The notes under the pieces were generated by a model, which worked only from the letters and a program-made list of their open reading frames with translations, did no database searches and was not told where the DNA came from. Of a stretch of DNA of 7,589 bases, positions 1 to 7,589 are shown one piece after another. The translations under genes and the position numbers were made by a program. This DNA comes from a virus. Its lineage: Duplodnaviria > Heunggongvirae > Uroviricota > Caudoviricetes. Within the stretch, counting starts at the first letter, position 1. Each line of letters begins with the position of its first letter. Location of the stretch: the IMG/VR virus record IMGVR_UViG_2681813321_000012, positions 1-7,589 of that record. One strand, 5' to 3'.

Positions 1-532
1 GTCGGTCCTGCACGAACGTCAGCGTCTGCCCGTTCCATACCGGCATACAGCGCATCGCCGAGCAGAAATCACTGAGCACATCCCACGCCTTGCGCTGTGT
101 GGTCAGGTACGCATTACAGGTAATGCGCGGCTCCGTGCCGCCAAAGCCATCCGGCACTGACTGGTCGCAGTACTGGCCGATGACATACAGCGCCCATTTG
201 TCCACATCCGCCGCACCAAGACGTTTCCCCATGCCGTAGCGTGGATGGGTCAGCATATCCCACAGACACCAGGCCATGTTGTTGCTGTATGCCGGTTTAA
301 ACGTTCCGTCCCAGATACCGCTGTATTGCCGCGTCTGCGGGTTATAATTCGACGGCACCTGCAGAATACGCCCGCGCAGATGATAATTACGGCTCACCTG
401 CTGGCTGCCGAACTGCTCCGAGTCCACCTGCACGCCGACCAGTGCCGTGTTCGGGTAGCCCTGTTTCACATCGATGATTTCGGTGTATGACGACCAGAGC
501 GTTTTGTTCTGCAGCTGGTCTGTGGTGCTGTC
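1..532 (-). CDS. J: Tail tip host-specificity protein J, internal fragment (partial at both ends); diverged second copy of 703-1234
   Basis: Seen in sequence: 1-532 aligns base for base with 703-1234 (offset 702, a multiple of 3), with scattered mismatches (e.g. 65 g vs 767 a). The minus-strand J frame stays open to the window edge, which is why no stop-bounded ORF is reported. Interpreted as the end of a separate contig or paralogous copy. Confidence 0.6.
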
Positions 533-542
533 NNNNNNNNNN
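533..542. other. Run of 10 N (assembly or scaffold gap placeholder)
   Basis: Ten consecutive n characters; the flanking sequence is duplicated elsewhere in the window. Confidence 0.95.
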
Positions 543-1792
543 ACAAGCTCTGTCGCCGTCTCCCAGCCGTTATTCGGGTCAATCCAGTTCACCTCAACGG
601 CATTATGGCGGTCCTTCAGGGCGCTGAAGCTGTAGCGGAACGGCGCGCCATCATCCGGCATCACCACATTACTGCGGTTATAGGTCCACACCTTATCTGA
701 TGGTCGGTCCTGCACGAACGTCAGCGTCTGCCCGTTCCATACCGGCATACAGCGCATCGCCGAGCAAAAATCACTGAGCACATCCCACGCCTTGCGCTGT
801 GTGGTCAGGTACGCATTACAGGTAATGCGCGGCTCCGTGCCGCCAAAGCCATCCGGCACTGACTGGTCGCAATTCTGGCCGATGACATACAGCGCCCATT
901 TATCCACATCCGCTGCACCAAGACGTTTCCCCATGCCGTAGCGCGGATGGGTCAGCATATCCCACAGACACCAGGCCATGTTGTTGCTGTATGCCGGTTT
1001 AAACGTTCCGTCCCAGATACCGCTGTATTGCCGCGTCTGCGGGTTATAATTCGACGGCACCTGCAGAATACGCCCGCGCAGATGATAATTACGGCTCACC
1101 TGCTGGCTGCCGAACTGCTCCGAGTCCACCTGCACGCCGACCAGTGCCGTGTTCGGGTAGCCCTGTTTCACATCGATGATTTCGGTGTATGACGACCAGA
1201 GCGTTTTGTTCTGCAGCTGGTCTGTGGTGCTGTCCGGCGTCATTCTGCGCATCCGGATATTAAACGGGCGCGGCGGCAGGTTATCCACCACCACCGAGGC
1301 CAGATACTGCGAGGTGGTTTTGCCCTTAATGGTGATGTCTTTTTCCGTCACCCAGCCACCGTTACGCTGTATCTGAACCAGCAGGCGGACTTCCGACGGA
1401 TTCCGGTCCCCCTTTGAGGTGGTTTCCACCAGTGCCTGCACACCGAAGGTAAAGCGCAGACGGTCGATGTTTGCCGACGTGATGGTCCGGGTGATCGGCG
1501 TGTCATATTTCACTTCCGTACCCAGCACCGTCTCGGAGCCGGAGGATTCAAATCCCTCCGGCGGTGTCTGCTCCTGCTCACCTGCCCGGAACACCACCGT
1601 GACACCGGATATATTGGTATTCCCCTCACTGTCCAGCACCGGCGTACTGTTCAGCAGCACGCTTTTTAATCCGTCCACCGGACCTTCAACCGGCCCTTCG
1701 CTGATGGCATCGATCACACTCAGCAGCTGCGTGGACTTCAGGTTGTCCCTCGCTTCGCGCGGGGTATGCCCCTTACTGCTTCCTTTACCCAT
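543..1792 (-). CDS. J: Tail tip host-specificity protein / central tail fibre J, N-terminal ~416 codons (3' end interrupted by the N run)
   Basis: Manual translation of the minus strand from the ATG at 1792-1790 gives MGKGSSKGHTPREARDNLKST, matching the lambda gpJ N-terminus as I recall it (MGKGSSKGHTPREAKDNLKS). A purine-rich GGAG/GAGGA motif lies just upstream (1793-1804). The ORF track shows no minus-strand ORF here, consistent with an open frame lacking a stop in the window. Gene order after I matches lambda. Confidence 0.9.
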
Positions 1793-1804
1793 TCCTCACA
1801 CTCC

Positions 1805-1833
1805 ATAAACAACAAAGCCGCCCAAAAGGCGGC
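1805..1833 (-). terminator. Rho-independent terminator downstream of the lipoprotein gene
   Basis: Minus-strand reading: GCCGCC-TTTTG-GGCGGC hairpin (plus 1817-1833, 6-bp all-GC stem, 5-nt loop) followed directly by the U-rich tract TTTGTTGTTTAT (plus 1816-1805). It sits about 25 nt after the lipoprotein stop codon. Confidence 0.55.
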
Positions 1834-1858
1834 TCATGAGTTACGACAGGATTAACTA

Positions 1859-2197
1859 TTATTTACATGCATTAACACTATCAGCAAAAATTTTTGGCGT
1901 TAATGCTGGTACACGTTCATAAAGAGTAAAACTACTGCCATTTCCTGCTTTTTTGATATCAAGCACAACATCATATCCCCCCATAGCCTGTGGAACTAAA
2001 AGGCTTACCCCATTCTCAATAGGAAGGGATGTTATAGGTGTTCCATTACCAGCCCATTGTCTGGATATGCAGCCTGACAATTCATCAATATTTTTTAATG
2101 AATTACCTTCCATTACAGGTTTTCCGGATTTTACGTAATCCAAAGATTTACATCCTGTTAAGGCAATAATCGTGCAGAATAAAATCGTTTTGTTCAT
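1859..2197 (-). CDS. Predicted outer-membrane lipoprotein of unknown function (moron between I and J), 112 aa
   Basis: The ORF track gives 1859-2209 with a TTG first codon; I prefer the in-frame ATG at 2197-2195, which yields MNKTILFCTIIALTGC... This has a typical lipoprotein signal peptide: basic N-terminus, hydrophobic core and lipobox L-T-G-C. The residue after the lipidated Cys is Lys, not Asp, so Lol sorting to the outer membrane is expected. Hand-counted GC is about 33-37% against roughly 60% or more in the neighbouring tail genes. I do not recognise the protein family. Confidence 0.75.
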   Translation of the reverse strand: MNKTILFCTIIALTGCKSLDYVKSGKPVMEGNSLKNIDELSGCISRQWAGNGTPITSLPIENGVSLLVPQAMGGYDVVLDIKKAGNGSSFTLYERVPALTPKIFADSVNACK

Positions 2198-2270
2198 ATA
2201 GCTAACCAATAGAATAATTATCAGTGTTCGATATAAATATTAAATCAGTTAGAACATGAGTAAAATAATA
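2198..2270 (-). promoter_or_regulatory. AT-rich intergenic region upstream of the lipoprotein gene; possible moron promoter
   Basis: 73-nt AT-rich spacer between the I stop (2271) and the lipoprotein ATG (2197). On the minus strand it contains a GATAAT (-10-like) hexamer at plus 2217-2222, preceded by TG two bases upstream. I found no convincing -35 or Shine-Dalgarno motif. Speculative. Confidence 0.2.
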
Positions 2271-2912
2271 TTACCGCCCAATTACCACAACCTGACCACC
2301 ATCCCCTTCATCTGCCGTGCTGATCTCCTGAGATGCCACACGTGACCCCACGCGCATTTCACCGTACAGAACAGGCAGGACATTGCCCTGGGCAACCATG
2401 TTATCCAGTGAGGAGAAATAGGTGTTCTGTTTGCCGTTATCCGTTGTCTGTGTACGGGGAGTTCTGGCTTTCGGTGCCAGCATCTGCGCCACACCACCAA
2501 GCGTCATCGCCGCACCCATTGAAAAGAGAATGTCACTGAAAGCGATACTGATCCCCGGCATCCAGATTGCCGTAGCAATCAACGCCGCACCCAGCACCGC
2601 CTGAAACACACCGCCACTTTTTGCTCCCGCAAGACGCGGCACGATGTGGATCACGGCACCATTTGCCAGCGGCTCATTAAGACGGGATGATAATTCGGTT
2701 TCTCCTGCATCCCGCCCGGCAATCCGTACCTGATACCAGCCATCGCTCAGTTTCTGACGAAACGCCGGGAGCTGTGTGGCCAGTGCCCGGATGGCTTCAG
2801 CCCCCGTTTTCACACGAAGGTCGATGCGGCGGCCAAATCGTTGCAAATCCCCGTAAAGGCAGATGCGTGCCATGCCCGGTGACGCCAGAGGGAGTGTGTG
2901 CGTCGCTGCCAT
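2271..2912 (-). CDS. I: Tail tip assembly protein I, 213 aa
   Basis: The translation MAATHTLPLASPGMARICLYGDLQRFGRRIDLRVKTGAEAIRALATQLP... matches lambda gpI as I recall it. It has a central hydrophobic Gly/Ala-rich segment and a C-terminus ending ...DEGDGGQVVVIGR. ATG at 2912 with GAGAGG about 12 nt upstream. The 5' end overlaps the 3' end of K by 103 nt in a different frame, the same overlap I recall from the lambda map. Confidence 0.9.
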   Translation of the reverse strand: MAATHTLPLASPGMARICLYGDLQRFGRRIDLRVKTGAEAIRALATQLPAFRQKLSDGWYQVRIAGRDAGETELSSRLNEPLANGAVIHIVPRLAGAKSGGVFQAVLGAALIATAIWMPGISIAFSDILFSMGAAMTLGGVAQMLAPKARTPRTQTTDNGKQNTYFSSLDNMVAQGNVLPVLYGEMRVGSRVASQEISTADEGDGGQVVVIGR

Positions 2913-3553
2913 TTGTCGGTATACCTCTCTCGTTTGCTCAGTTGTTCAGGAATATGGTGCAGCAGCTCGCCATCACCACAGTAAATAGCGGCATGATTCG
3001 GCACCGATGAACCAAAGCAGCACAGCAGCACATCGCCCGGCTGCGCCGCTGACAACGGCACCTGATACAGCCCCGTTGCCTCCAGATTATCCAGATAGAG
3101 ATTCTGACCGTGACGCCACCAGTCATCCTCACGATGAAAGTCCGGCATCTCAATCCCCGCCAGATGGTAAGCATCCCGGAACAGTGTGTAACAGTCCGTC
3201 ACCCCGTACTCAAAGCGCCGCCCGGTGAGATGCGGCACACAGCGGAACTTGTGAATCGCCCCCCGGCAGACCAGCCACCACGGCAAATCGCTCTGCACCT
3301 GTAGCCGCCGGTCAGCCTCACTCAGCCAGGGCAGACCACCGGGGTGGCTGTGGACCAGCGCCACAATCTCACCCTGCATCTCTGCCTGCAGCCAGTCCTC
3401 CGGAGCCATCCGGAAATAATCCTCCGGCTCACCGGAAATATTCACGCCGGGAAAATATCTTTCCCCCTCCGGCGTTCTCACCACGAAGCCGCACGACTCC
3501 GCTGGCGCACATCGCCGGGCGTGCGCCAGAATCGCTGATTCTGTCTCTGTCAT
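2810..3553 (-). CDS. K: Tail tip assembly protein K (MPN/JAMM-like plus NlpC/P60-like domains), 247 aa as called from the first ATG
   Basis: Translation contains H-S-H-x7-S-x2-D (HSHPGGLPWLSEAD), a JAMM/MPN metalloprotease signature, and a downstream Cys/His region (TDCYTLF ... NHAAIY) typical of NlpC/P60. The ATG at 3553 is 5 nt after the L stop. An alternative internal ATG at 3409, preceded by GGAGGA, would give the 199-aa form annotated for lambda K. Confidence 0.85.
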   Translation of the reverse strand: MTETESAILAHARRCAPAESCGFVVRTPEGERYFPGVNISGEPEDYFRMAPEDWLQAEMQGEIVALVHSHPGGLPWLSEADRRLQVQSDLPWWLVCRGAIHKFRCVPHLTGRRFEYGVTDCYTLFRDAYHLAGIEMPDFHREDDWWRHGQNLYLDNLEATGLYQVPLSAAQPGDVLLCCFGSSVPNHAAIYCGDGELLHHIPEQLSKRERYTDKWQRRTHSLWRHRAWHASAFTGICNDLAAASTFV

Positions 3554-3558
3554 GGGAT

Positions 3559-4257
3559 TTACTGCGAAAGTTTGTTAATGGAAAGGAAGCCGCCAAAGTT
3601 GCCGACGTTATTGCGAAACTTACAACCGCTCAGGCATTTGCTGCATTTATCCTTCGTGATATCGGACGTTGGCTGGTCATATTCATCCGCGACCGCCGGA
3701 CCGTGATAACCGCACTCATCGCCGCGATAGGTCCAGGTGCAGGTGTTGGCCAGCATGATACGTCCCGGAAAAACAGCGCCGTCCGTTTCCGTCGGCGTGG
3801 ACAGTACAAAGGAGGCACTGACCGCGCTCAGTTCGCTGCACTGCTCGATGCGCCAGCGGCTGATCACCTCCTGCTCCGGATCGGCGTCGCTGTTTCCGTT
3901 GACGAAATTCACCGCATCCAGAAAACGGGCGTAAACCTTACGCCTGACCACCGTTCCGCCGACCAGACTCTGCATATCTTCCGCCATGCCGGTGACCATA
4001 CCGTACAGGTTAGAAACCGTCAGCGTGGGGCGCGTACTGGTGCCTTTGCCATTCAGTTCAAAACCACTCCCCTGAATGGGATACGGCTGATACTGTCGCC
4101 CCTGCCAGGTGACCGGCTCACCTTTTTCGTTCTGCTCATTACAGAAAAAATAACGTTCTCCACCGACCTCTGTCAGGTCGATTTCCCAGAGCACCACGCT
4201 GGCAGACTGCTCCGCACGGGTGCATTCATTCAGTGTTTCCTGTCGGATATCCTGCAT
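3559..4257 (-). CDS. L: Tail tip complex protein L, 232 aa
   Basis: The translation MQDIRQETLNECTRAEQSASVVLWEIDLTEVGGERYFFCNEQ... has the same length as lambda gpL. The C-terminus carries clustered cysteines (CTWTYRGDEC ... CSKCLSGC). The start ATG overlaps the M stop (TGATG at 4259-4255). Confidence 0.95.
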   Translation of the reverse strand: MQDIRQETLNECTRAEQSASVVLWEIDLTEVGGERYFFCNEQNEKGEPVTWQGRQYQPYPIQGSGFELNGKGTSTRPTLTVSNLYGMVTGMAEDMQSLVGGTVVRRKVYARFLDAVNFVNGNSDADPEQEVISRWRIEQCSELSAVSASFVLSTPTETDGAVFPGRIMLANTCTWTYRGDECGYHGPAVADEYDQPTSDITKDKCSKCLSGCKFRNNVGNFGGFLSINKLSQ

Positions 4258-4586
4258 CAGTTCACCACCTGTTCAAACTCTGCGCTGAACTCAACACGCA
4301 GCATACTGACCCGCGACGACCATTTTGCGCAGGTCACCTTTATCTGCCGGTAGCCATAAGGCGGCGTCCACAGAAAGGCCTTCCAGCCCCCGTGCTCAGC
4401 CAGAAACGACTCCAGCGCCGCGGCCTCCCAACGGGGAACAGAAAGCGTCACGCTGTACGTTTTCAGGTCAGTGTTCAGCCCGGCAGGCGCTCGCTGGGAA
4501 TAGCCATCACCAAAGCGCACCTTTCTTACGGAAGGGGCAGAAGCCACATCCATACCGGGTTTCACTTTCCAGCGGAAGGTTTTCAT
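4257..4586 (-). CDS. M: Tail tip complex protein M, 109 aa
   Basis: The translation MKTFRWKVKPGMDV...EFSAEFEQVVN has the same length as lambda gpM. The start overlaps the stop of the upstream H fragment (ATGA at 4586-4583). Confidence 0.95.
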   Translation of the reverse strand: MKTFRWKVKPGMDVASAPSVRKVRFGDGYSQRAPAGLNTDLKTYSVTLSVPRWEAAALESFLAEHGGWKAFLWTPPYGYRQIKVTCAKWSSRVSMLRVEFSAEFEQVVN

Positions 4587-5182
4587 CGTCCACCTCCGGA
4601 GAACAGACCACCATCGCGCATCTGCCCGGTCACAACATCCATTGCCGCCTTACGGGCTACGTCATAAACAGCCTTCAGTGCCTGTGGCCCTATCTGACCG
4701 TTCGTGCCGTCGTTGTTAATCACCACATGGTTATTCTGCTCAAACGTCCCGGACGCCTGCGACCGGCTGTCCGCCATGCTGCCCGGTGTACCGACATAAC
4801 CGCCGGTGGCATAGCCGCGCATCAGCCGGTAGAGATTCCCCACGCCAATCCGTCTGGTTGCCTCCTTCGTGAAGACGAATTCACCGCGGTGAACAATTCC
4901 CGCTGGCTCATATTTGCCGCCGGTTCCCGTAAATCCTCCGGTTGCAAAATGGAATTTCGCCGCAGCTGCCTGAATGGCTGTACCGCCTGATGCGGATGCG
5001 CCGCCACCAACAGCCCCGCCAATGGCGCTACCGATACTCCCGACAATCCCCACCATTGCCTGCTTAAGCAGAATTTCTGTCATCATGGACAGCACGGAAC
5101 GGGTGAAGCTGCGCCAGTTCTGCTCACTGCCGGTCAGCATCGCTGCCATATTCTGTGCAATACCGTCAAAGGTCTGCGTGGC
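4583..5182 (-). CDS. H: Tape measure protein H, C-terminal 200 codons (5' end interrupted by the N run)
   Basis: Translation ATQTFDGIAQNMAAMLTGSEQNWRSF ... MRDGGLFSGGGR is a diverged copy of the C-terminus of the H ORF at 5952-7589. It includes a Gly/Ala-rich hydrophobic segment. The track fuses it to the L fragment on the other side of the gap as a 347-aa ORF with XXXX, which I treat as an artefact. Confidence 0.85.
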   Translation of the reverse strand, partial: ATQTFDGIAQNMAAMLTGSEQNWRSFTRSVLSMMTEILLKQAMVGIVGSIGSAIGGAVGGGASASGGTAIQAAAAKFHFATGGFTGTGGKYEPAGIVHRGEFVFTKEATRRIGVGNLYRLMRGYATGGYVGTPGSMADSRSQASGTFEQNNHVVINNDGTNGQIGPQALKAVYDVARKAAMDVVTGQMRDGGLFSGGGR

Positions 5183-5192
5183 NNNNNNNNNN
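5183..5192. other. Run of 10 N (assembly or scaffold gap placeholder)
   Basis: Ten consecutive n characters; the flanks are duplicated elsewhere in the window (offset 1369). Confidence 0.95.
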
Positions 5193-5626
5193 GCGCTCAG
5201 TTCGCTGCACTGCTCGATGCGCCAGCGGCTGATCACCTCCTGCTCCGGATCGGCGTAACTGTTTCCGTTGACGAAGTTCACCGCATCCAGAAAACGGGCG
5301 TAAACCTTACGCCGGACCACCGTTCCGCCGACCAGACTCTGCATATCTTCCGCCATCCCGGTGACCATACCGTACAGGTTAGAAACCGTCAGCGTGGGGC
5401 GCGTACTGGTGCCTTTGCCATTCAGTTCAAAACCGCTCCCCTGAATGGGATACGGCTGATACTGTCGCCCCTGCCAGGTGACCGGCTCACCTTTTTCGTT
5501 CTGCTCATTACAGAAAAAATAACGTTCTCCACCGACCTCTGTCAGGTCGATTTCCCAGAGCACCACGCTGGCCGACTGCTCCGCACGGGTGCATTCATTC
5601 AGTGTTTCCTGCCGGATATCCTGCAT
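5193..5626 (-). CDS. L: Tail tip complex protein L, N-terminal 144 codons (3' end interrupted by the N run); second copy
   Basis: Translation MQDIRQETLNECTRAEQ ... RIEQCSELS is identical to the N-terminal part of L at 3559-4257 except for one residue (Y vs D in VNGNS[Y/D]ADPEQ). Confidence 0.85.
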
Positions 5627-5955
5627 CAGTTCACCACCTGTTCAAACTCTGCGCTGAACTCAACACGTAACATACTGACCCGCGATGTCCATTTTGCGCA
5701 GGTCACCCTGATCTGCCGCCAGCCATAAGGCGGCGTCCACAGAAAGGCTTTCCAGCCCCCGTGCTCAGCCAGAAACGACTCCAGCGCCCTGGCCTCCTCG
5801 CGGGAGACAGAAAGCGTCACGCTGTACGTTTTCAGGTCAGCATTCAGCCCGGCAGGCGCACGCTGGGAATAGCCATCACCAAAGCGCACCTCCCTGACGG
5901 AAGGAGCCGATGTCACATCCATCCCGGGTTTCACTTTCCAGCGGAAGGTTTTCAT
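5626..5955 (-). CDS. M: Tail tip complex protein M, 109 aa (second, diverged copy)
   Basis: Same length and start/stop overlaps as the M gene at 4257-4586. The two proteins differ at 9 of 109 positions by my hand alignment. Confidence 0.95.
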   Translation of the reverse strand: MKTFRWKVKPGMDVTSAPSVREVRFGDGYSQRAPAGLNADLKTYSVTLSVSREEARALESFLAEHGGWKAFLWTPPYGWRQIRVTCAKWTSRVSMLRVEFSAEFEQVVN

Positions 5956-7589
5956 CGTCCACCTCCGGAGAACAAGCCACCATCACGCATCTGTGCCTGA
6001 ATTTCATCACGGGCACCCTTGCGGGCCATGTCATACACAGCCTTCAGCGCCTGTGGTCCAATCTGCCCGTTCGTGCCGTCGTTGTTAATCACCACATGGT
6101 TATTCTGCTCAAACTTCCCGGACGCCTGCGACCGGCTGTCCGCCAGACTGCCCGGTGTACCGACATAACCGCCGGTGGCATAGCCGCGCATAAGCCGGTA
6201 AAGATTCCCCACGCCAATCCGGCTGGTTGCCTCCTTCGTGAAGACAAACTCACCACGGTGAACAATCCCCGCTGGCTCATATTTGCCGCCGGTTCCCGTA
6301 AATCCTCCGGTCGCAAAATGGAATTTCGCCGCAGCTGCCTGAATGGCTGTACCGCCTGATGCGGATGCGCCGCCACCAACAGCCCCGCCAATGGCGCTAC
6401 CGATACTCCCGACAATCCCCACCATTGCCTGCTTAAGCAGAATTTCTGTCATCATGGACAGCACGGAACGGGTGAAGCTGCGCCAGTTCTGCTCACTGCC
6501 GGTCAGCATCGCTGCCATATTCTGTGCAATACCGTCAAAGGTCTGCGTGGCCACGCTTTTTACCTGCGAAAAACTGTCCGTCGCACTTTCCGCCCACTCA
6601 CCCCAGCCGGACTTCATCCCGGCCATCCAGCTTCCACGAAGCTGCTCCTCCGCAGACCAGGTGTTCTTCAGTGCAGATGTGGCCTTCGCCAGCGCATCCG
6701 GATTATCACCGTACACCTCACGAAGGCGCTGCTCTTCCGACTCCCGCTGCGCCTGACGGTCGGTGAGTCCGCGGGCTTTTGCGCTGATTGCCGCCTGCTT
6801 CGCACTCTGCTGCTGTTCAAACCGCGCCGCCTGCTGTGCCAGCTCATTCAGCCGTTTCTGGTGTTCAACCTTGTCGCCCAGCTCAGCCAGCTGGCGTTTG
6901 TACTCCAGCGTCTCTTTCTCATGAGCCAGCAGGGATTTTTCCTGCTCAGATAACTGCCGTTTCGTGGCGGCCTCTTTCAGGACCACATACTGATTTTCCG
7001 CTTTCCATAAATCCCGGCGCTGCTGGCTGATTTTTTCATTCGCACCGCTGTGCTTCTCCAGCGTCCTGAGCTCAGTTTCAAGCGACAGCATGGCTGCATG
7101 CGCCCGGTCTTCCTGGCGCTCACCGGCAGACACCTTCACACCTGACGGCTTTTTCTGCGTCGATTCATAATCCTTTTTTGCCGACGCCATCAGCGTGTTG
7201 TAATCCGCCTGCAGGATTTTTCCGTCTTTCAGGGCCTTATTCAGCTCTTCCTGCCGGGCGGTATATTTCTCCAGTGGCGTCAGCAGGCGCTCATACGCCT
7301 TCTGCGCCTCTCCGGTATACTTCAGCTGTGACGACTCACGCTCAGCCCTGTCCCTTGCCGCCAGTTCACCGGCTTTTTCCATATCCGACTGCAGCGTGGC
7401 CGCTGCCAGACCCAGACGGGCATTTTCCCGGTCATCCCATGCGCCCTGAAGGTTGGCCCGGAAAGAGGAGGTTTTACCGCGGCGCTGGCTCCGGCTCTGG
7501 TACCACTGCCATTTTTTATCCGCCTCATCAAATGCCTTCTGCGCACTGGCGAGCATATCCGCTGAGGATTCCGGACGACCGATATCCAG
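5952..7589 (-). CDS. H: Tape measure protein H, C-terminal 545 codons (5' end beyond the window)
   Basis: The frame is open from the stop at 5952-5954 to the window edge. The Met at 7556 in the track is only the first in-window Met, not the true start (lambda H is about 853 aa as I recall). Translation is rich in E/K/Q/A/L heptad-like sequence (coiled coil) with a Gly/Ala-rich hydrophobic segment near the C-terminus and the ending ...MRDGGLFSGGGR. The gene order H-M-L matches lambda. Confidence 0.9.
   Translation of the reverse strand: MDIGRPESSADMLASAQKAFDEADKKWQWYQSRSQRRGKTSSFRANLQGAWDDRENARLGLAAATLQSDMEKAGELAARDRAERESSQLKYTGEAQKAYERLLTPLEKYTARQEELNKALKDGKILQADYNTLMASAKKDYESTQKKPSGVKVSAGERQEDRAHAAMLSLETELRTLEKHSGANEKISQQRRDLWKAENQYVVLKEAATKRQLSEQEKSLLAHEKETLEYKRQLAELGDKVEHQKRLNELAQQAARFEQQQSAKQAAISAKARGLTDRQAQRESEEQRLREVYGDNPDALAKATSALKNTWSAEEQLRGSWMAGMKSGWGEWAESATDSFSQVKSVATQTFDGIAQNMAAMLTGSEQNWRSFTRSVLSMMTEILLKQAMVGIVGSIGSAIGGAVGGGASASGGTAIQAAAAKFHFATGGFTGTGGKYEPAGIVHRGEFVFTKEATSRIGVGNLYRLMRGYATGGYVGTPGSLADSRSQASGKFEQNNHVVINNDGTNGQIGPQALKAVYDMARKGARDEIQAQMRDGGLFSGGGR

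Follow-up and report, generated by a model that had tools for sequence, protein, structure and literature searches.

A low-GC lipoprotein moron of the PHROG 914 family between tail genes I and J of a lambda-like E. coli prophage, and a tentative role in exclusion or conversion at the cell envelope

The virus record IMGVR_UViG_2681813321_000012 of IMG/VR (Caudoviricetes), positions 1 to 7,589 of which were analyzed here (the window), carries a series of lambda-like tail genes, all on the minus strand, and between two of them, I and J, we found an insert which encodes a lipoprotein precursor of the protein family PHROG 914. On the evidence of the sequence and its relatives, this insert is very probably a moron, that is, a horizontally mobile cassette of about 430 bp, low in guanine plus cytosine (GC), which lies in the orientation of the tail genes and encodes a lipoprotein predicted to be processed by the Sec/Lsp route. 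Two marks of a moron, extra DNA between genes which are adjacent in relatives and a base composition unlike that of the neighbors, were found. The I–J spacer (1793–2270) measures 478 bp, as against 60 bp at the same junction in Lambda_2E9 and mEp460, and alignment with these two phages delimits a cassette of about 432 bp at 1839–2270 (minus strand), which takes the place of about 17–20 bp in the lambda-type spacer of 60 bp. In this alignment the cassette is bordered on the left by the stop codon of I (2273–2271), up to which the homology with the I genes of lambda and mEp460 reaches, and on the other side by a point just upstream of a hairpin that precedes J. The GC content was 0.337 over 1855–2270, 0.363 within the open reading frame (ORF) and 0.219 in the 73-bp leader, against 0.577 in the flanks, and the deficit recurred in every host looked at (copies from Klebsiella, Enterobacter, Kluyvera and phage Fraca). 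Both flanks were matched by 103 phage records and the middle, the insert, by none. A preliminary description of this DNA, made from the letters alone, had estimated the gap at about 480 bp against some 60 bp in lambda and the GC content at about 35% against about 60% in the flanks, and had proposed a horizontally acquired lipoprotein moron. The measured values agree closely with these estimates, and the acquisition itself is borne out by the lack of the insert in the 103 flank-sharing records, by its low GC content and by the movement of the family between slots, which is taken up below.

When the I–J junctions were compared across lambdoid phages, as had been suggested in that description, the spacer proved to be variable, with lengths of 60, 240, 342, 478, 506 and 698 bp and unrelated contents. 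PPompW phages (342 bp, L026:1785-2126) and phage 204576 (240 bp, L025:1786-2025) carry inserts at this junction which are unrelated to the lipoprotein cassette, apparently non-coding, with a GC content of about 0.43 and hairpin-like inverted repeats. We considered these two spacers as deletion derivatives of the cassette and rejected the idea, as the sequences are unrelated. Since unrelated inserts are found there in these phages, the I/J junction is a general insertion hotspot.

The lipoprotein precursor gene occupies 1859–2197 (minus strand) as an ORF of 339 bp, encoding 112 residues plus the stop, and the precursor begins with MNKTILFCTIIALTG followed by CKS. The ATG start is favored by the homologues, while the mechanical list of ORFs begins four codons earlier at a TTG. 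Residues 1–15 make up the putative signal peptide (2150–2197, minus strand), and a lipobox was found in which MNKTILFCTIIALTG followed by C fits the pattern [LVI][ASTVI][GAS]C (LTG before the cysteine; L13-T14-G15-C16), with Lys at +2 and Ser at +3. A lipobox was also present in nearly all of the 141 retrieved relatives, and none of those with a recognized lipobox carried Asp at +2. Under the Lol sorting rule, Asp at +2 acts as an inner-membrane retention signal and lipoproteins without it proceed to the outer membrane; with Lys at +2, Ser at +3 and no Asp at +2, the outer membrane is the predicted destination of the protein. The mature protein comprises 97 residues, with a calculated mass of about 10.3 kDa and a calculated pI of 7.9. 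Only three columns were invariant among 63 family members (26% mean identity), namely Cys16 of the lipobox, Cys43 (codon at 2069–2071, minus strand) and the penultimate residue Cys111 (codon at 1865–1867, minus strand). The AlphaFold2 model (predicted local distance difference test score 83.7, predicted template modeling score 0.76) is a compact alpha+beta domain of the order beta-alpha-beta4-alpha and places the latter two cysteines in its two helices, Cys43 in helix 37–50 and Cys111 in the C-terminal helix 103–111; a disulfide between them probably staples the mature domain. The conserved residues of the family are Cys, Pro, Trp and Gly only, and because no catalytic residues are conserved among them, a binding protein is suggested and not an enzyme. 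The 112-residue ORF with its lipoprotein signal peptide and Lys at +2, as well as the two further cysteines, had been read correctly in the preliminary description, and both cysteines turned out to be invariant.

The protein matched PHROG 914, annotated as of unknown function, over its whole length (E=7.3e-33; residues 1–112 on profile positions 1–118 of 118), and a profile search brought together about 125 sequence clusters of about 105–125 residues. Its RefSeq entry is WP_001332187.1, a 'hypothetical protein'. An identical or near-identical gene was present in 337 of 5,426 complete Escherichia coli genomes (about 6%), and UTI89, NU14, O104:H4 C227-11, O55:H7 CB9615 and the type strain ATCC 11775 are among its carriers. 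Homologues of the same length with 50–62% identity were found in Klebsiella, Enterobacter, Kluyvera and Jejubacter, and remoter ones in Yersinia, Hafnia, Shimwellia, phage Fraca, a metagenome-assembled genome (MAG) of the Nitrosomonadales and many metagenomes. A tblastn search of phage records with the lipoprotein gave two matches only, at about 30% identity, and a profile scan of genome contigs with a narrow alignment gave one Kluyvera locus. Two E. coli alleles differ at six nucleotides, five of them synonymous and one causing a Leu/Ile change, and by this measure the gene is under purifying selection. Judged by its conserved length across genera, its membership of PHROG 914 and this synonymous bias, the ORF is a real gene.

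We also compared the positions of family members in their genomes; these slot comparisons, and the comparisons of J types given further below, cover the matches listed, which were the best rows of each search. Among 69 IMG/VR loci the family used three slots of the tail operon: I/J, with 57–59 loci, where the E. coli allele is always found; T/H, between T and the tape-measure gene, with six loci of Enterobacter-type relatives; and K/I, with 3–4 loci of Klebsiella/Kluyvera-type relatives. Distant members were seen in the early region of a phage, on a genomic island with integrase and transposase genes, and antisense within a head-gene cluster. In the K/I slot of phage Fraca a second small ORF (90 residues, no lipobox; L002:4725-4994) stands just upstream of the lipoprotein homologue, so that the insert in this slot comprises two genes.

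The morons of the HK97 and HK022 tail operons, reportedly described by Juhala and colleagues in 2000, are the closest parallel in layout. Those annotated in the two genomes occupy the same three intergenic slots as the PHROG 914 lipoprotein, with gp15 at T/H, gp20 at K/I and gp22/gp23 at I/J, and they are likewise extra DNA with respect to related phages, lower in GC and followed by a hairpin before the next tail gene. The gp15/gp20 family, moreover, sits in different slots (T/H in HK97, K/I in HK022), as the lipoprotein family does at T/H, K/I and I/J. On the other hand, these morons have no sequence similarity to the lipoprotein: comparison with HK97 gp15, gp22 and gp23 and with HK022 gp20, gp22 and gp23 gave a match to the signal peptide only or no match. 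Furthermore, gp15 and gp20 are inner-membrane helices of about 60–75 residues and the lipoprotein belongs to another class; with HK97 gp15 it has only the T/H slot in common, through its Enterobacter relatives. HK022 gp20 (K/I, L013:6749-6973) visibly resembles HK97 gp15 (T/H, L014:2204-2392), an exclusion protein, and in the K/I spacer of HK97 (L014:7514-7835) a gp20-like frame is broken by a stop codon; to judge from this likeness and the interrupted frame, the gp15 family too moves between tail slots and decays where it sits. Because lambda and many relatives do without the lipoprotein gene, its product is dispensable for tail assembly. The lambdoid tail operon is already known as a moron hotspot, and the existence and location of this moron are unsurprising; the lipoprotein itself is uncharacterized.

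Just upstream of the ribosome-binding site of J lies a hairpin followed by a T-run, resembling an intrinsic terminator (1805–1835, minus strand). Its 9-bp stem with six GC pairs spans 1835–1815 (-16.7 kcal/mol, z = -3.65). It had been taken for a dedicated terminator of the insert, which does not hold, as the hairpin is ancestral to the I–J spacer. The insert-less spacers of lambda and mEp460 carry a homologous hairpin at the same distance before J, and on this alignment we rejected a terminator brought in with the insert. The stem arms read AAACCGCC/GGCGGTTT in insert-bearing and GAGCCGCC/GGCGGCTT in insert-less spacers, a compensatory A:T to G:C exchange which points to selection for the structure within the late operon. 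As a hairpin with a T-run follows the lipoprotein gene in all slots, and as in the annotation of HK97 a putative terminator directly precedes each of H, I and J, hairpins of this kind belong to the slots themselves. A match to the Rfam family GcvB at 1807-2032 (minus strand; 19.6 bits against a gathering threshold of 42, E=0.07), overlapping the 3′ half of the lipoprotein ORF and the hairpin, was treated as chance. At the other end of the cassette, the AT-rich leader of 73 bp (2198–2270, minus strand; GC 0.22) is a possible promoter region. In one E. coli genome (GCA_900449155.1, L017:7377-9893) an element of the IS66 family with three transposase ORFs has entered this leader, between I and the lipoprotein gene, and now stands between the latter and the late operon that precedes it.

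From the position of the gene beside J, the tail-tip and host-specificity gene, the preliminary description had inferred masking of the phage receptor in the manner of Llp and Cor. Cor of phi80, N15 and HK022 and Llp of T5 are superinfection-exclusion lipoproteins which block FhuA. On this explanation the lipoprotein would mask the outer-membrane receptor of the phage's own J, and so stop superinfection and the loss of progeny on debris. In its favor, a predicted outer-membrane lipoprotein is encoded beside J in E. coli and would be co-transcribed with the tail genes. Cor and Llp are likewise outer-membrane lipoproteins of phages, their mature parts contain cysteines, and their genes lie in or near the tail or receptor-binding-protein region, that of T5 Llp next to pb5 and that of HK022 Cor downstream of J. 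T5 Llp is a precedent for exclusion by a phage lipoprotein (PMC9586334), and Lpp021 and Lpp010 of the mEpimmI coliphages, which are also lipoproteins, encoded among the clustered structural genes of these temperate phages, gave exclusion by receptor type, OmpA or LamB, when expressed from a plasmid (PMC11893012). The same idea has been published for Pseudomonas phage AH14a, where a Cor-like role was speculated, with no experiments, for a lipoprotein in the K/I slot (PMC4936722).

The distribution of J types speaks against such masking. At 46 loci of E. coli in which J is complete, a lipoprotein identical or different by one residue preceded at least four C-terminal classes of J (1159 residues, n=33; 1137 residues, n=6; 1132/1160 residues, n=4; 1084 residues, n=2), and there was also one J of 993 residues, which is probably truncated. 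Pairwise similarity between the C-terminal classes was 6–71%, and the C-terminus of the 1084-residue class is unrelated to the others. The lipoprotein of CB9615 has a single residue changed, whereas the last 360 or so residues of its J show 39–75 identities per 100 alignment columns, well under the N-terminal part. The commonest J C-terminus occurred in 4,015 of the 5,426 genomes against 337 for the gene, and is thus about 12 times commoner, and the PPompW phages and phage 204576 have J C-termini which are 95.8–99.8% identical, yet lack the lipoprotein gene. Adjacency to J was limited to the E. coli clade, the relatives being found at K/I, at T/H or outside tail clusters. Nor does the mature domain resemble the known masking proteins. 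When HK022 Cor and T5 Llp were compared with the lipoprotein (by BLASTP, and for Cor with the family profile also), the signal peptide alone aligned, and their mature parts are of 61–62 residues against 97 here. Likewise the homology with the Lpp proteins of mEp021 and mEp010 was confined to the signal peptide; Lpp021 and Lpp010 have 72–82 residues, are encoded downstream of J in the opposite orientation, and have alleles that follow the receptor. Cor and Llp go with a receptor specificity, whereas the gene described here is not tied to the J C-terminus; the co-variation of allele and receptor-binding protein which marks a receptor-matched exclusion class was not found. With at least four C-termini behind one protein, slots away from J and a mature domain unlike Llp and Cor, masking of the phage's own receptor is improbable and the earlier inference from position was not borne out, while a more general exclusion role is possible by analogy. 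The idea that the gene travels with one particular receptor-binding domain of J was rejected, as it stands before at least four J classes and the J type occurs mostly without the gene. J itself is a mosaic at these loci (L015-L024, L034-L092), with about 800 N-terminal residues conserved at 92–100% and 300–360 C-terminal residues falling into at least four classes, which points to recombination break-points inside J, downstream of the lipoprotein gene. At one locus (L022) the same block of lipoprotein gene, J and lom was joined to a different, Gifsy-2-like head module.

We rate as most likely, though only tentatively and by analogy, that the lipoprotein has an exclusion or conversion role at the envelope which is independent of the receptor-binding domain of J. 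As a whole, a moron encoding an exclusion or conversion lipoprotein is the best explanation, and our confidence in it falls just short of balanced. By established pathways the precursor would be exported by Sec, processed by Lgt, Lsp and Lnt with lipidation at Cys16, and delivered by Lol to the outer membrane, and DsbA would form the C43–C111 disulfide. Since it would then be a lipidated, outer-membrane-sorted and probably disulfide-stapled domain, the mature protein would do its work in the envelope of the cell rather than in the virion. During lytic growth the Q-antiterminated late transcript would read through the lipoprotein gene, and in a repressed prophage its expression would need a promoter in the 73-bp leader, which is plausible. 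Its function may be to bind something in the envelope, and a lysogen or infected cell whose envelope is converted in this way would exclude an incoming phage. Because the protein is identical before different J domains and is also found in other slots and phage types, the cognate receptor is probably not what it masks; a likelier target would be a shared step, such as the crossing of the outer membrane and periplasm by the tail tip or tape measure, or else some common protein of the envelope. Targeting of the crossing step has been proposed for Ltp and HK97 gp15. Exclusion or conversion is favored because most of those phage morons and lipoproteins of tail clusters which have been tested (among them gp15, Llp and Lpp021/Lpp010) serve in superinfection exclusion; for HK97 gp15 an exclusion phenotype has been demonstrated (PMC3594210), whereas for the lipoprotein described here no phenotype is on record. 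A bolder form of this proposal is that PHROG 914 is a new class of exclusion factor which intercepts the conserved penetration by siphophage tail tip or tape measure on the periplasmic side of the outer membrane, with no specific receptor masked. Such interception would explain the location in the tail operon, the moves between T/H, K/I and I/J and the identity of the protein before different J domains, and we regard it as speculative and somewhat unlikely.

A number of observations weigh against the exclusion or conversion role. Searches of the protein and 63 relatives against Pfam (E<=1 for the lipoprotein itself, E<=0.01 for the relatives), NCBIfam, PADLOC and PDB sequences gave no family, the sole match being a VirB7 signal peptide (E=0.08). 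No characterized homologue of the lipoprotein was found, nor any paper in the literature on WP_001332187 or phrog_914; in a paper on the prophage transcriptome of LF82 the gene is not among the expressed morons, whether LF82 carries it not being established. The best fold analogue, Flpp3 of Francisella tularensis (DUF3568; PDB 6pny, 2mu4 and 9nlt), is weak (Foldseek E=5e-3, TM 0.52) and its own function is unknown. With a sequence identity of 6–9% and no Pfam match, the likeness of the model to Flpp3 appears to be at the level of fold only, and the DUF302, KA1 and BamC-N domains scored similarly. There was no Llp chain among the best PDB fold matches, and the one significant match in BFVD was an uncharacterized protein of Pseudomonas phage phiAH14a. 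The mature protein, which had not been recognized from the letters, thus stayed without a characterized family after profile and structure searches. As to expression, a scan for the sigma-70 consensus found no site of 9/12 or better on the coding strand (the best candidates, read by hand, TTTACT-17-AATATT at 2264–2236 and TTTAAT-16-GATAAT at 2244–2217, score 8/12 each), the Shine-Dalgarno sequence of the gene is weak, and in the K/I copies of Klebsiella and Kluyvera only about 30 bp separate K from the lipoprotein gene. Finally, the present evidence does not tell exclusion apart from a host-fitness role of the Bor, Iss or TraT type.

Such a role, in which the lipoprotein would serve host fitness or virulence conversion in the manner of Bor/Iss or TraT, through serum resistance, adhesion, envelope stress or vesiculation and with no direct exclusion, is suggested by its size and class. 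Bor is a phage outer-membrane lipoprotein and lysogenic-conversion factor (PMC3594210), and lambda Bor and Iss are, like the protein described here, prophage outer-membrane lipoproteins of about 100 residues. The gene adjoins the conversion gene lom, it is carried by extraintestinal pathogenic (ExPEC), avian pathogenic (APEC) and enteroaggregative Shiga toxin-producing E. coli (UTI89, NU14, APEC isolates, O104:H4), Flpp3 was deposited as a Francisella 'virulence determinant', and independence of the J receptor-binding domain suits such a role as well. However, bor adjoins the lysis genes and does not lie in the tail operon, and neither the lipoprotein nor any of its 63 relatives gave a Pfam match to Lambda_Bor (PF06291) or to another family. 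The strain distribution may merely follow a prophage lineage integrated at ompW, and the presence of the family in environmental metagenomes and in the Nitrosomonadales MAG suits a phage-centered role better, so that we consider host fitness on its own rather unlikely. The weak promoter candidates and the 30-bp spacing from K would also suit a helper of the lytic cycle, expressed from the late operon only and silent in the repressed prophage, which would alter the outer membrane against re-adsorption of progeny or tune lysis; its tail-gene orientation inside the late operon is in keeping with this. Most lambdoid phages, however, dispense with the gene, distant members lie reversed or outside late operons and hence need promoters of their own, and the terminator-like hairpin after the gene in all slots fits the layout of a moron, all of which makes a purely late helper very improbable. 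What its location between I and J might also suggest, a tail structural or assembly protein, or else a spurious ORF in AT-rich junk, is effectively refuted. A Sec/lipobox signal would export the protein from the cytoplasm, where tails are assembled, and lambda and more than 100 relatives lack the gene, while conservation across genera, invariant cysteines, purifying selection and a confidently predicted fold speak against a spurious ORF.

The remainder of the window consists of the tail genes themselves (all coordinates on the minus strand). The tape-measure gene H lies at 5952–7556, M at 4257–4586, L at 3559–4257 and K, with JAB and NlpC/P60 domains, at 2810–3553. The tail assembly gene I was identified at 2271–2912 by its match to Pfam PF06805 (Lambda_tail_I, E=4.4e-24). 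As listed, its ORF of 213 residues overlaps K by 103 nucleotides (2810–2912), and its start is uncertain, since RefSeq and gene-caller annotations begin later (191 or 200 residues). The 5′ part of J occupies 543–1792, with the ATG at 1792–1790, and breaks off at an assembly gap (533–542); its N-terminal 416 residues differ at two positions from J of the prophage of ATCC 11775. The window was scaffolded from three contigs, with linkers of ten N at 533–542 and 5183–5192, and the lipoprotein-gene insert, which lies wholly inside the middle contig (543–5182), is unaffected by the gaps. Three pairs of repeats were found (1-300 and 703-1002, 3824-4123 and 5193-5492, 4648-4947 and 6017-6316), and segments of J, L/M and H are present in second copies which are 94–98% identical. 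These duplicated segments presumably come from a second, similar lambdoid prophage in the draft assembly. The ORF at 4583–5626 is an artificial chimera of L and H across the run of N.

About 6% of complete E. coli genomes carry the gene, heavily studied strains among them, with no annotation beyond 'hypothetical'. The locus tag that the gene bears in UTI89, UTI89_RS29190, lies outside the numbering of its neighbors, which suggests that a subsequent re-annotation introduced it, in which case functional screens of earlier date could have overlooked the gene. One moron family which uses all three classic slots of the tail operon provides a clean example of its kind, and the case also cautions that the position of a gene alone is a poor basis for assuming receptor masking. 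If the exclusion role is true, a receptor-independent lipoprotein would join the known exclusion factors, with a bearing on host range in phage therapy and on competition between prophages. If the protein alters properties of the envelope instead, it would be another conversion factor of the Bor/Lom type in ExPEC.

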